Shown here in pieces: positions 21,135 through 25,684 of a stretch of 64,000 nt of DNA. A program made the position numbers and the translations under genes. Origin of the DNA: an uncultured delta proteobacterium. Lineage in GTDB: Bacteria; Myxococcota; UBA727; VGSZ01. The stretch's first letter is position 1. The number at the start of each line of letters is the position of its first letter. Below the pieces are notes generated by a model. That model had not been told where the DNA came from. It searched no databases and saw only the letters and a list, made by a program, of their open reading frames with translations. The stretch lies in NCBI GenBank assembly GCA_963775425.1, contig CAVZJB010000006.1:99898-163897 (forward strand), written 5' to 3'.

Positions 21135-22742
21135 GTGAGCGAGCTGCCGCAGGGCGTCAAGGAGAGCATCGACCCCGTCGATCTGCGCATGGTGGCGCAC
21201 GACCTCTGGCCGCGCCGGCTCATCGAGCGCCGTGACGAGCAACCCGTCACGCTGCCGCAGCGGGTGTTCTGGCCGGACAACGACGACCAGGTCGCCGCCG
21301 TCGTGCGCGCCGCGCGCGTCGCGCGCAGGCCGCTCGTCCCCTTCGGCGCCGGCAGCGGCGTGTGCGGCGGCATCTCGCCGACGTCGACGTCGTGGATCCT
21401 CGACCTCAAGCGCCTGTCGCGCGTGGTCTCCGTCGACGCCGCCCAGCGCACCTGCGTCGTCGAGGCCGGCGTCATCGGCGAGCGCCTCGAGGAGGCGCTC
21501 AACGCGCGCGGCCTCACGCTCGGCCACTTCCCGTCGTCCTTGTATTGCTCCACCGTCGGCGGCTGGGTCGCCACCCGCGGCGCCGGCCAGCTCTCGTCGC
21601 GCTACGGCAAGGTCGAGGACATGGTCCTCGCCGTCGAAGGCGTCGACGGCCGCGGCAAGAAGATCCGCGCCGCCGTCGACGAGCCCCAGACCGGCCCCGG
21701 CGCGCTCCAGCTCCTGATCGGCTCCGAGGGCGCCCTCGCCGTCATCACGCGCGTCACCTTCAGGGTCCACCCGCTCGCGTCGCACCGCTGGCTGCGCGCC
21801 TACGCCTTCGACGACCTCGGCGGCGCCCTCGCCGCGATGCGCGCGGTCATGCAGGGCGGCGAGGCCCCGAGCGTGCTGCGCCTGTACGATCCCAACGACG
21901 CCGCCCTCGCCGGCTCCCTGCCGCAGCGCGAGGGCGACCCCGACCGCATCGTCGCCGGCGGCATCGCCCACGCCGACCTCGAGGACAGCGGGCCCAAGCC
22001 CGAGACCGACGAGGAGCCCACCCTCTTCGACACCCTCGCCGAGCGCGTCGACGAGCTGGCGCTCTTCGTGCGGCCGCGCGCCGCGCGCAAGATCGTCGGC
22101 GAGATCCTCGGGCGCCCCACGCTCGCCAACGCCGTCCTCGACCGCATCCACGCCAAGCCCCGGCTCATCATCGGCCTCGAGGGCCGCGCCGACGAGATCG
22201 CCGCGCGCGTGCCCGCGTTGAAGGCGCGGCTGCAGGCCATGGGCGCGCGCGACCTCGGCGACGAGCCCGGCACCCGCTGGCTCATGCACCGCCACCGCGT
22301 GAGCTACCGGATGTCGCGCGCGTTCGCCGCCGGCACCTGGGTGGACACGTTCGAGGTGGCCACCGGGTGGGAGGGCGTGGTGCCGCTCTACCGCGACGTG
22401 CGCGAGGCGCTGCGCGACGTCGCCGTCGTCATGTGCCACATGAGCCACGCCTATCACGACGGCTGCTCCCTCTACTTCACGTTCGCGGGCTTCGGCGCGC
22501 AGGGCTCCGGTCCGCGCTCGGCGCTCTCGCGCTACGACCTCGCGTGGGAGCGCGCGCTCACCGTCGCCCGCCGCCACGGCGCCGCGCTGTCGCACCACCA
22601 CGGCATCGGCCGCAGCAAGGCGCGCGCGCTCCGCCCGGCGGCGGGGGCCAACGCGCTCCTGCATGCGCTCAAGCGCGAGCTCGACCCCGACGACATCCTG
22701 AACCCGGGCGTGCTCGGCCTCGGCGGCGAGGCCGCGCGGTGA
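21135..22742 (+). CDS. FAD-linked oxidase, alkyl-DHAP synthase (AGPS)/GlcD-like
   Basis: It has an FAD_binding_4-type core (VPFGAGSGVCGG, WILDLKRL). The block GHFPSSLYCSTVGGWVATRGAGQLSSRYGKVEDMVLAVEGV resembles the AGPS STVGGW...YG.IED block more than the GlcD GGNV block. The start is GTG 21135; ATG 21189 is the alternative. Confidence 0.85.
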   Translation: MSELPQGVKESIDPVDLRMVAHDLWPRRLIERRDEQPVTLPQRVFWPDNDDQVAAVVRAARVARRPLVPFGAGSGVCGGISPTSTSWILDLKRLSRVVSVDAAQRTCVVEAGVIGERLEEALNARGLTLGHFPSSLYCSTVGGWVATRGAGQLSSRYGKVEDMVLAVEGVDGRGKKIRAAVDEPQTGPGALQLLIGSEGALAVITRVTFRVHPLASHRWLRAYAFDDLGGALAAMRAVMQGGEAPSVLRLYDPNDAALAGSLPQREGDPDRIVAGGIAHADLEDSGPKPETDEEPTLFDTLAERVDELALFVRPRAARKIVGEILGRPTLANAVLDRIHAKPRLIIGLEGRADEIAARVPALKARLQAMGARDLGDEPGTRWLMHRHRVSYRMSRAFAAGTWVDTFEVATGWEGVVPLYRDVREALRDVAVVMCHMSHAYHDGCSLYFTFAGFGAQGSGPRSALSRYDLAWERALTVARRHGAALSHHHGIGRSKARALRPAAGANALLHALKRELDPDDILNPGVLGLGGEAAR

Positions 22743-23602
22743 AGCACCTCGACACGCGCCCCAACGACCTCATCGAGCTGCTCCGCCGCGCCCGCGTCGA
22801 GGGCACGCCGCTCGCGCTGCGCGCGCCGCCGGGCACGGACAGCGCCATCGTTCGCCTCGTCGCAGGGCGCGAGGCCACCGTCAGCCTCGACGGTCACAAC
22901 GGCATCGCGGAGATAGACGGCGCGCTCACGCTGTCGTCGGCGGCGCGGCGGCTCGAGCGCATGGGCGCGGTGTTTCCGCTCGCGCGCCCGCTGCCGCCGC
23001 TGTCGTTGGCCGTGGCGTGCGCTGCGCTGCCGTTCTTCGTCGACGCCTACGTGCAGCAGGTGGAGGCCATCACCTTCGACGGCGATCCCTTCGACACGCC
23101 CCGCGCCCCGCGCGCCGCCGCCGGCCCCTCGCTCATCGCGGCGCTGTGCACGCGGCCGCCGCTGGCGCTCGCGGTGCGCGCGCGCGTGCGCGTGCTCCTC
23201 ACCACGCACGCGGTGCTCCACCGCGAGGAGCACGACAACGTGCGCGCCGCCGCCGCCCGCGTGCGCGCGCTCGTCGACGACGGGCGCGCCTTCACCGTGG
23301 ACGCGTGCGGCACCTCGGTGCTCGTGCTCGGCGGCGCCGGCCGCGCGACGTCCCTGCCCGCCGAGAGCTTCACACACGAGGGCCGCGGGCGGAGCGCGTC
23401 GTTCTCCCGTTCGCGCTCGCTCCGTCCCGGCGACGAAGACGCGGTGGCCGCCGCGCTCGACGAGGGCGCGCGCGTGGTCGCGGCGCCGTTCATGGGGCGC
23501 GTGGCGGCGCTGTCGCGCGGCTTCGAAGCCATCCCGGTCGTCGAGGTCGAGCGCGGTGTGCGCGCCGTCGCCGACGCGCTCGTGAAAGGTCCCTCCGCAT
23601 GA
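22739..23602 (+). CDS. GlcE-like subunit (divergent, no clear FAD motif)
   Basis: 287 aa. The GTG at 22739 overlaps the upstream stop (GTGA), and the stop overlaps the next start (ATGA). Its position between the D-like and F-like genes matches glcDEF order. Sequence similarity was judged only loosely. Confidence 0.55.
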   Translation: MKHLDTRPNDLIELLRRARVEGTPLALRAPPGTDSAIVRLVAGREATVSLDGHNGIAEIDGALTLSSAARRLERMGAVFPLARPLPPLSLAVACAALPFFVDAYVQQVEAITFDGDPFDTPRAPRAAAGPSLIAALCTRPPLALAVRARVRVLLTTHAVLHREEHDNVRAAAARVRALVDDGRAFTVDACGTSVLVLGGAGRATSLPAESFTHEGRGRSASFSRSRSLRPGDEDAVAAALDEGARVVAAPFMGRVAALSRGFEAIPVVEVERGVRAVADALVKGPSA

Positions 23603-24738: not shown

Positions 24739-24757
24739 GCAGCACGAGGTGTCAGCC

Positions 24758-25684
24758 ATGAGCGGCGAGATCGTCTTCATCGTGAACCCGCGGTCCGCAA
24801 ACGGCGCGACGCTGCGCCGGTTCGAGCGTGTGCGCGGGCGCTTCGCGCAGGAGCTCGGCGACATCGAGGTGAAGCTCACCGAGCGGCCCCGGCACGCCAG
24901 CGAGCTGAGCCGGGCCGCCGTCGACGGCGGCGCCCGCGCCGTCATCAGCGTCGGCGGCGACGGCACCAACAACGAGGTCGTCAACGGCTTCTTCGACGAC
25001 GAAGGGCACGGCGTCGGCGACGGCACCTGCGCCTTCGGCGTGGTCACGAGCGGCACCGGCGGCGACTTCCGCCGCACGTTTTCCTGGAGCACCGAGCCGC
25101 TCGACGACCTCGCCCGCCTCAAGCGGTTTCAGACGCGCAAGATCGACGTCGGCCGCGTGGTCTTCGCCGACGGCGCCGCCCGCACCTTCGTCAACATCGC
25201 CAGCTTCGGCATGAGCGGCGAGGTCGTCGACGTCGTCAACCACTCGAGCAAGGCGCTCGGCGCCAAGCTCTCCTTCATGCTCGGCTCCGTGCGCACGATG
25301 ATCGGGCACAAGCCGCAGGCGGTGCGCATCACGCTCGACGACGGCGAGTCGTGGCAGGACGACGTCACCCTCGTCGCCGTCGCCAACGGCCAGTACTTCG
25401 GCGGCGGCATGTGGATCGCGCCCGAGGCCAAGGTCGACGACGGCCAGTTCGACTGCGTCGCGGTGAGCGGAGGCGGACTGGGATTCTGGTTGCGCGAAGG
25501 TCTCAAGGTGTACGGTGGCAAGCACATCGGACTCCCCGGGGTTCGCGTGTCGCGCTGCAAGAAGGTGCGCGCGGAGCCGCTGCACGCGGGTGAGCGTGTC
25601 CTCGTCGAGATCGACGGGGAGCAGCCCGGCGTCCTGCCTGCCACCTTCGAGATTCTCCCCGGGGCGCTCCCGCTGCTCGTGTAG
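24758..25684 (+). CDS. diacylglycerol/lipid kinase family protein (YegS/BmrU-like)
   Basis: It begins MSGEIVFIVNPRSANG and contains the GGDGTNNEVVNG motif, with a C-terminal beta-sandwich part. The start is ATG 24758; a GTG at 24749 is possible. Confidence 0.88.
   Translation: MSGEIVFIVNPRSANGATLRRFERVRGRFAQELGDIEVKLTERPRHASELSRAAVDGGARAVISVGGDGTNNEVVNGFFDDEGHGVGDGTCAFGVVTSGTGGDFRRTFSWSTEPLDDLARLKRFQTRKIDVGRVVFADGAARTFVNIASFGMSGEVVDVVNHSSKALGAKLSFMLGSVRTMIGHKPQAVRITLDDGESWQDDVTLVAVANGQYFGGGMWIAPEAKVDDGQFDCVAVSGGGLGFWLREGLKVYGGKHIGLPGVRVSRCKKVRAEPLHAGERVLVEIDGEQPGVLPATFEILPGALPLLV

Follow-up and report, generated by a model that had tools for sequence, protein, structure and literature searches.

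An AGPS-like flavoprotein in a conserved operon with GlcE-like, iron-sulphur and lipid-kinase partners in Myxococcota

Alkyl-dihydroxyacetone-phosphate synthase (AGPS) has relatives in many genomes of the Myxococcota, and most of these AGPS-like genes belong to a redox-wired gene cassette whose distribution ignores the known ether-lipid genes. The cassette is described here from a 64,000-nucleotide stretch of an uncultured delta proteobacterium of that phylum (assembly GCA_963775425.1, contig CAVZJB010000006.1, positions 99,898 to 163,897), which is called the window below and in which positions are counted from its first letter. There it consists of four plus-strand genes, named g1 to g4, which encode an AGPS-like flavin adenine dinucleotide (FAD) oxidase, a degenerate subunit of the GlcE type, an iron-sulphur (Fe-S) protein and a lipid kinase. 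The cassette is probably not a plain ether-lipid synthase. We tentatively propose, with a probability of about 0.4, that it encodes a flavin/Fe-S enzyme that is complete in itself and has a site of the AGPS type. Jointly with the lipid kinase, this enzyme would act on a glycerol-phosphate or dihydroxyacetone phosphate (DHAP)-type lipid, and it would exchange electrons with the quinone pool via g3.

The operon

A preliminary description of this DNA, made from its letters alone, had reported four chained plus-strand genes between 21135 and 25684. The window has a G+C content of 70-76%, and a third-position GC of 0.9-1.0 backs four consecutive plus-strand frames over just this range. The GTGA overlap between g1 and g2 (22739-22742) and the ATGA overlap between g2 and g3 (23599-23602) are both found in the letters. 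Could the kinase gene be transcribed independently, as the same description considered? The layout argues otherwise, as g3 and g4 overlap in all four close relatives examined. The minus strand upstream of g1 carries a small gene and one for a sigma-54 response regulator; downstream of g4 come a gene for an FHA-GAF protein and then a Ser/Thr kinase gene. With such neighbours on both sides, the operon is taken to comprise these four genes, which by their reading frames and spacing appear real and form one unit. A 535-residue entry in a public protein collection (P0006) is 100% identical to g1.

The AGPS-like flavoprotein

Is g1 an AGPS-like or a GlcD-like oxidase? The former had been favoured for a STVGGW...YGKVEDMVL block, which is present in g1. 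By name, the top NCBIfam match of g1 is glcD (TIGR00387), with 135.5 bits against a cut-off of 567.9. In a sequence search of the Protein Data Bank (PDB), g1 scored 175.7 bits with the AGPS of Dictyostelium (2uuu) and 153.6 bits with that of guinea pig (4bby), while the best glycolate oxidase or D-lactate dehydrogenase (D-LDH) entry reached 95 bits. The fold gives the same picture. When an AlphaFold 2 (AF2) model of g1 (pLDDT 82.5) was searched with Foldseek, ranks 1-37 were all AGPS chains (E 5.8e-34, TMq 0.73-0.74), with D-LDH behind at E about 4e-26. The protein thus shares the VAO/PCMH fold and cap domain of AGPS (EC 2.5.1.26), which is its nearest match in both sequence and fold.

The active site was compared by alignment to 4bby (Table 1). 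We take the mammalian active-site numbering to be Arg419, Tyr578 and His615-617; the PDB titles of 4bc7 and 4bca name an Arg419His and a Tyr578Phe mutant, respectively. All these positions are kept in g1, and they are near-invariant across 111 AGPS-like rows from the fetched loci. In contrast, a GlcD-like paralogue from the same genome, the sole outgroup row in the 111-row alignment, has Glu, Gly and GEHG at the Arg, Tyr and HHH positions, and GEHG-type oxidases of other genomes likewise carry the GEHG loop. A tree of 46 rows was then rooted on the GEHG-type oxidases. It contains hand-picked representatives of the 111 rows plus five added ones, with no eukaryotic sequences, and was obtained by a quick search with support from the Shimodaira-Hasegawa-like approximate likelihood ratio test (SH-aLRT) only. 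A branch with 100% SH-aLRT support parts all 42 AGPS-like rows from the GEHG-type oxidases. A FastTree of the 111 rows, from which 7 sequences shorter than 430 residues and 13 duplicates had been dropped, leaves the deep branching unresolved (38 of 108 inner branches open). PDB scores, active-site positions, fold ranks and the 100% branch thus agree, and clustering of g1 with GlcD or D-LDH, the outcome that would have spoken against the preliminary assignment, is not seen. On its sequence, we place g1 in the AGPS branch of the FAD-oxidase family, not with GlcD or D-LDH.

Is g1 then a canonical AGPS? The comparison with a canonical AGPS in another Myxococcota genome (L145, 633 residues; presumably of the MXAN_1676 type) indicates that it is not. 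L145 scores 556.9 bits over its full length against mammalian AGPS and aligns from residue 57 of 4bby. The N-terminal domain is absent from g1, whose residue 33 corresponds to residue 198 of 4bby and residue 27 to residue 124 of 2uuu. The identity between g1 and L145 is 32% and is confined to the FAD domain. On the 46-row tree L145 falls in a separate clade of four rows (100% support), while g1 lies in a 33-row clade together with all cassette-type proteins. The partners differ as well: g1 is accompanied by E-like and Fe-S subunits and a kinase, while canonical AGPS goes with FAR and GNPAT. For example, the canonical AGPS of M. xanthus is described in an operon with a FAR-GNPAT protein in the accessible text of a preprint on plasmalogen origins (10.1101/2025.10.10.681575), which also holds that the phylogenetic signal of AGPS is too weak.

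Some further observations concern the AGPS-like family. Many g1 homologues (P0007-P0124) bear the automatic JGI name 'alkyldihydroxyacetonephosphate synthase' though they lie in the cassette clade, and this naming is likely an over-annotation. A third AGPS-like type, of 525 residues with an HHHA loop and 214-239 bits to AGPS, is found at L154 886-2463 (genome G142); it groups with the canonical AGPS clade, and the same genome also has the cassette. There is also a Polyangiaceae-type subclade of g1 homologues (L013, L016, L021, L024, L028, L037) of about 660-690 residues, extended at the C terminus. Where the flank is long enough, the surroundings out to 6 kb contain neither a g3-like nor a g4-like gene; L028 has only about 1.4 kb downstream.

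The partner proteins

What is the protein encoded by g2? It has zero Pfam or NCBIfam matches and evolves fast, being 25-64% identical among relatives whose g1 proteins are 57-76% identical. Its earlier designation as an E subunit is nevertheless backed by position, profile comparison and fold. At the same position in Bradymonadia and other lineages stands a protein of about 385 residues with the Pfam domain FAD_binding_4, and an hhalign comparison of the g2-family profile with the profile of these GlcE-like neighbours gave a probability of 95.4% (E 2e-8). An AF2 model of g2 (pLDDT 86.5) had the D-LDH 8jdt as its top Foldseek match (E 2e-9), with D-LDH, alditol oxidase and AGPS at E 2e-9 to 4e-7. 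We regard g2 as a degenerate GlcE-like subunit with a shortened flavoprotein fold, as modelled. Neither the glycine-rich FAD loop nor the ATVGG-type motif was found in g2 by alignments and profile comparison, and with both gone the protein probably binds no flavin.

The domains of g3 agree with the GlcF- or GlpC-like Fe-S protein expected from the preliminary description. Pfam gives CCG in two stretches (3.8e-15) and Fer4_8 (1.2e-6), and the two [4Fe-4S] motifs and two CCG domains are all intact. The NCBIfam matches are loose, to TfrB, LdhH and GlpC (50.8 bits; cut-off of PRK11168, 278 bits) and more weakly to GlcF (22.3 bits; cut-off 333 bits), all of them below the cut-offs. For g4 the assignment is firmer. 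The protein carries the GGDGT motif first noticed in the letters, scores 141.7 bits against TIGR00147 (cut-off 118.65), has the Pfam domains DAGK_cat and YegS_C, and matches diacylglycerol (DAG) kinases, BmrU, YegS and DgkB in the PDB. By curated score, motif and solved relatives it is a member of the DgkB/YegS/BmrU/Rv2252 group of soluble lipid kinases, and it is the sole above-cut-off TIGR00147 match in its genome.

Conservation and fusions of the cassette

Homologues of g1 (E <= 1e-40) were found in 68 of 151 sampled Myxococcota genomes and in eight of the nine genomes of its own family. Do the partners travel with it? To compare synteny, 49 non-redundant loci with at least 4 kb downstream were taken from the Myxococcota-dominated group. 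Downstream of the g1 homologue, 38 of them have a gene like g3 and 35 have one like g4, with 31 having the two together. This is a linkage of g1, g3 and g4 beyond chance. Among 20 wider regions from genomes across families, g3 is present in 15 and g4 in 14. Genes like g3 and g4 are both absent from the 22 actinobacterial-type loci and the four planctomycete loci. No recurrent fifth gene emerged when the open reading frames (ORFs) of 39 loci were clustered. Two recurrent 'families' of about 196 and 156 residues were dropped, as they are antisense ORFs inside g1 and g4. An aspartyl-tRNA synthetase gene lies upstream in 8 of the 39 loci. In the family coded f2, of the same order as the window's genome, the cassette is found in 0 of 20 genomes (0.3-3.4 Mb) and DAO_C in 7 of 20.

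The subunits are also found fused. Among the g1 homologues listed, 20 of 120 are 771-937 residues long, the size of a g1-g2 fusion, and in family f10 g1 and the E-like part share a single open frame. At locus L121 a frame of 1164 residues (7233-10727) contains FAD_binding_4, FAD-oxidase_C, Fer4_8 and CCG, and L122 has a counterpart of 1124 residues (5099-8473); both join an AGPS-like part, an E-like remnant and an Fe-S/CCG part. Such natural fusions suggest a physical complex of g1, g2 and g3 on a dehydrogenase-like plan. They mirror the order of FAD_binding_4, FAD-oxidase_C, Fe-S and CCG parts in E. coli YdiJ (NF049975), a single-chain FAD/Fe-S D-2-hydroxyglutarate dehydrogenase. The likeness is one of domain order; g1 scores 69.5 bits against the YdiJ cut-off of 1350 and belongs to another active-site branch.

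Glycerol-phosphate and ether-lipid genes

With which pathway is the cassette associated? In several lineages it stands beside genes of glycerol phosphate oxidation. GlpA-like (DAO + DAO_C) and GlpB-like genes lie directly upstream of it at L121 and L125, a GlpA-like gene and a 415-residue gene upstream at L122, and a GlpA-like gene adjoins it at L126. For the actinobacterial-type clade, 27 loci have a GlpD-like gene ahead of the AGPS-like one, and one example also has a major facilitator superfamily (MFS) transporter, an FGGY kinase and a GlpP antiterminator. In the window's own genome, contig 17 carries a GlpA-like gene (DAO + DAO_C + BFD [2Fe-2S]), a GlpB-like gene and then a PanE/ApbA-type reductase gene, with no glpC. 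GlpD/GlpA-type DAO_C domains occur in 133 of the 151 genomes. Neither a FAR nor an acyltransferase gene was found beside g1, either among the neighbours in the window or as a recurrent family in the 39 loci.

The presence of the cassette was also tallied by family against CarF, ElbD-like and GlpB-like genes (Table 2), and no dependence in either direction was found. These tallies indicate that the cassette is autonomous, untied to known ether-lipid synthesis, and merged with glpAB in some lineages. The preliminary description had put its emphasis on ether lipids. This does not hold up, given that g1 is non-canonical, that no FAR or acyltransferase gene is its neighbour, and that the distribution is mismatched to ElbD and CarF. 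Its second suggestion, a glycerolipid or glycerol-phosphate redox function, fits better, with GlpA/GlpB or GlpD beside the homologues in other lineages. Surveys take agps matches as a marker of bacterial ether lipids (10.64898/2026.06.23.733905, in its accessible part). Since most AGPS-like genes of the Myxococcota belong to a separate cassette, such matches should not be taken as ether-lipid synthesis.

Table 2. Genomes per family with the cassette and with ether-lipid or glycerol-phosphate genes; ElbD-like counts are a floor, owing to a stricter first look in the search
Family	Cassette	CarF	ElbD-like	GlpB-like
f8	14/18	0/18	0/18	3/18
f10	17/20	2/20	19/20	0/20
f14	2/21	19/21	21/21	0/21
f19	0/9	0/9	7/9	8/9
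f23	none			4/4

The window's organism itself has genes of both kinds. On contig 17 (L156 1-19901) there is an ElbD-like gene of 1653 residues (FAR + AMP-binding + acyltransferase), accompanied by methyltransferase and epimerase genes; the glpA-like/glpB-like operon lies on the opposite strand at a distance of about 5-9 kb. Two CarF/PEDS1-family genes (PF10520) are on contig 5, at 62261-62776 (200.9 bits) and 550880-551359 (175 bits). From these genes, the organism may make vinyl-ether lipids.

A possible mechanism

How might the four proteins work together? The catalytic subunit would be g1, its AGPS-type site holding the DHAP skeleton against the FAD. Its partner g2 would be a catalytically dead paralogue, pairing with g1 as GlcE does with GlcD, and g3 would link the flavin of g1 to the quinones of the membrane by electron transfer. 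The kinase g4 would phosphorylate a glycerol-based lipid, converting a mono- or diradyl-glycerol to a 1-O-substituted glycerol 3-phosphate. This product may be oxidised by g1-g2-g3 to the DHAP level, with the electrons going to quinone via g3, and AGPS-type chemistry (enolisation, flavin N5 adduct) would then exchange or release the C1 substituent. The role of the operon would be glycerolipid turnover or salvage coupled to respiration, not ether-bond formation. The observations behind this proposal are the conserved set of genes with their domains, the AGPS residues that are kept, the fusions between subunits, and the links to GlpA/GlpB and GlpD genes; which substrate is used, which way the electrons flow and in what order the steps occur we infer from these.

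Several points weigh against it. The known AGPS reaction involves no net redox change and needs no electron acceptor, so that the retained AGPS residues alone predict no dehydrogenase. The neighbouring GlpA/GlpB or GlpD could perform the oxidation, with the Fe-S subunit serving them and not g1. The partner of the AGPS-like gene in other phyla is an FGGY kinase, an enzyme of soluble substrates, and the substrate may therefore not be a lipid. The lineage of L045 has g1-g3-g4 without g2, which is thus dispensable at least there. Finally, if the unbroken g3 frame of the assembly (see below) is real, it would place about 290 aberrant residues on the subunit.

A bolder form of the proposal, which we consider rather doubtful, is a new respiratory enzyme, that is, an AGPS-type flavoprotein coupling exchange of the C1 ester or ether of a DHAP lipid to quinone-linked electron transfer. 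An example would be a lysophosphatidate or alkyl-glycerol-phosphate:quinone oxidoreductase followed by release of the C1 chain. If a respiratory AGPS-type enzyme of this kind does work with the kinase, glyceryl ester and ether lipids could be dismantled or remodelled independently of oxygen. It would further suggest that the ether-lipid synthase of animals descends from such a redox enzyme.

Alternative explanations

What else could the operon encode? One alternative, unlikely in our view, makes g3 the GlpC of a GlpAB-type anaerobic glycerol 3-phosphate (G3P) dehydrogenase. Electrons would pass from GlpAB through g3 to quinone, and g1, tethered to the complex, would receive DHAP or a derivative for non-redox AGPS-type chemistry. 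The glpA-like and glpB-like genes preceding the L121 fusion, and the GlpA-like genes near L122, L125 and L126, suit this explanation. So does the genome of the window, in which the GlpA- and GlpB-like genes of contig 17 lack a glpC and neither of the two other CCG proteins, out of three, adjoins glpAB. In its scores, too, g3 resembles the E. coli GlpC more than GlcF. However, it stays well under the GlpC equivalog cut-off, the operon itself has no glpA or glpB, both being on another contig, and the family tallies run the other way. Families f10 and f8 mostly carry the cassette, with GlpB-like genes absent or rare, while f19 and f23 have GlpB-like genes and no cassette (Table 2). The cassette must therefore work without GlpAB in many lineages.

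It is quite unlikely that g1 is a true alkyl-DHAP synthase, for example the AGPS step for the ElbD route, with g2-g3 keeping its flavin oxidised and g4 feeding or draining lipid intermediates. All three catalytic positions of AGPS are kept, and no second AGPS-like gene is present in the genome, which is 94.55% complete and has the ElbD-like multidomain gene and the two CarF/PEDS1-family genes. The ElbD route is said to be without an AGPS candidate in the accessible text of the plasmalogen-origins preprint (10.1101/2025.10.10.681575). Against this stand the much lower score of g1 than of the canonical protein, its place in another clade, and the loss of the N-terminal domain. No FAR or acyltransferase gene is at hand, and a synthase would have no use for an electron acceptor. 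The tallies disagree as well: the cassette is common in f8, where ElbD-like and CarF genes are absent, and rare in f14, where nearly all genomes have both.

A soluble substrate is an improbable third choice. The complex would then oxidise a small phosphorylated triol or polyol, or a DHAP-related metabolite, and g4 would act on a soluble or weakly amphipathic alcohol. This reading draws on other lineages, in which an MFS transporter, an FGGY sugar-type kinase, a GlpD-like gene and GlpP accompany the AGPS-like gene. In the window, however, there is no transporter or sugar-kinase gene in or beside the operon, and g4 passes a curated lipid-kinase cut-off, its solved relatives being DAG kinases, YegS and DgkB.

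An ordinary glycolate, D-lactate or D-2-hydroxyacid dehydrogenase of the E. coli GlcDEF type, lying by chance next to a kinase, is very improbable, because what matches is the architecture (the D-like, E-like, F-like order, with an FAD_binding_4 catalytic subunit, a paralogous E, and an F with two 4Fe-4S motifs and two CCG domains) and the name of the top NCBIfam hit, while g1, g2 and g3 all miss the GlcD, GlcE and GlcF models, g1 has HHHG for GEHG and Arg and Tyr for the outgroup's Glu and Gly, the 100% branch separates it from the GEHG-type oxidases, the E subunit has lost its FAD motifs, and the kinase is kept with the set in 35 of 49 loci.

Relation to published systems

Is such a gene set already described? 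No account of an AGPS-like protein with Fe-S/CCG partners was found in the literature, nor any biochemical study of the cassette in the literature searched, and the accessible text of the plasmalogen-origins preprint contains no mention of it (10.1101/2025.10.10.681575). The nearest published relative, going by its published description, is PA3026-PA3023 of P. aeruginosa. In the available part of that paper (PMC8151288), the GliR (PA3027) regulon is reported to co-regulate the FAD oxidoreductase PA3026, a GlpD homologue, an FGGY kinase, a YegS kinase and a phospholipase C. The authors suggest that PA3026 converts acyl- to alkyl-glycerone phosphate, the AGPS step, and a deletion gave no phenotype under the tested conditions (PMC8151288). 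Like our operon, this system as described combines an AGPS-like FAD oxidoreductase with a YegS-type kinase, and a G3P-dehydrogenase homologue is co-regulated with them; unlike our operon, it includes GlpD and an FGGY kinase but lacks E-like and Fe-S/CCG subunits. Thus the preliminary statement that the pathway was not described stands for the combination with Fe-S/CCG partners, while the link of an AGPS-like protein with a YegS-type kinase is already in print. Rv2251 and Rv2252 of M. tuberculosis may be another linked pair. The cassette would represent a widespread enzyme set at the junction of glycerolipid metabolism and respiration. Its biochemistry should be readily approachable through the natural single-chain fusions, and through carriers in culture such as Lujinxingia vulgaris (L005).

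Features of the locus

The positions of the genes and motifs are collected in Table 1.

Table 1. Genes, motifs and other features of the operon, in window positions
Feature	Position	Strand	Evidence or remark
Divergent intergenic region between the upstream minus-strand gene (ATG at 21023) and g1	21024..21134		
g1, AGPS-like FAD flavoprotein, 535 residues	21135..22742	+	Pfam FAD_binding_4 (7.1e-37) and FAD-oxidase_C (1.7e-30)
g1 FAD pyrophosphate loop PFGAGSGVCGG, residues 69-79	21339..21371	+	Invariant in 21 homologues; kept in cassette rows
g1 Arg249, corresponding to mammalian AGPS Arg419	21879..21881	+	Alignment to 4bby
g1 Tyr440 (SHAY), corresponding to mammalian AGPS Tyr578	22452..22454	+	Alignment to 4bby
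g1 His487-His489 (HHHG loop), AGPS signature; GEHG in GlcD and D-LDH types	22593..22601	+	Alignment to 4bby
g2, degenerate GlcE-like subunit, 287 residues	22739..23602	+	VAO/PCMH fold (modelled) without FAD motifs
g3, GlpC/GlcF-type Fe-S protein	23599..24718	+	Fer4_8 and two CCG domains; end given as the out-of-frame TGA, the stop site of relatives
g3 first four-Cys motif, Cys16, 19, 23, 27	23644..23679	+	Translation, within Fer4_8 match
g3 second four-Cys motif, Cys69, 72, 75, 79	23803..23835	+	Translation, Pfam
g3/g4 junction	24700..24760	+	CCC run 24712-24714, TGA 24716-24718, GAGG ribosome-binding site, ATG 24758
g4, YegS/Rv2252/BmrU-family lipid kinase, 308 residues	24758..25684	+	ATG 24758; GTG also at 24749
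g4 GGDGT nucleotide-binding motif	24953..24967	+	Translation

One feature of the locus differs from the preliminary description, in which g3 and g4 were parted by a short gap. As assembled, the g3 frame meets its first stop at 25593, and for about 290 codons it crosses g4 in a different frame. Its coding signal, measured by third-position GC, fades near 24700, and the TGA at the junction is one base out of frame. In the two closest relatives g3 ends in ...GELP-stop, overlapping the kinase start, and in two further relatives it ends 5-6 residues later. The letters at this place are CCC ATG A in the window and CCG TGA in the closest relatives. If one base is removed from the CCC run, g3 ends as in the relatives and a 39-nt gap to g4 results. 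The missing stop is either an assembly indel, which is plausible, or a real, recent frameshift. One soil-metagenome run contains 6% of the sampled words, and its contigs leave 24700-24760 uncovered; no RNA run was among those listed.

A consensus scan found no sigma-70-like promoter, including in the divergent region upstream of g1. Terminator-like sites numbered 4 against 1.2 expected; two are inside plus-strand genes, and none stands at the plus-strand gene boundaries of the operon.

Two neighbours deserve mention. In the small minus-strand gene at 20346-21023, the coding signal is lost near 20600, and a well-biased frame of 64 residues (20405-20599) continues from there. This break looks like another possible indel, and neither piece has a Pfam match. 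On the other side, the FHA-GAF gene (25811-27952 in the window) recurs in 6 of the 39 loci, mostly in close relatives (L001, L003, L119, L128, L129), and may be a regulatory neighbour of the operon.

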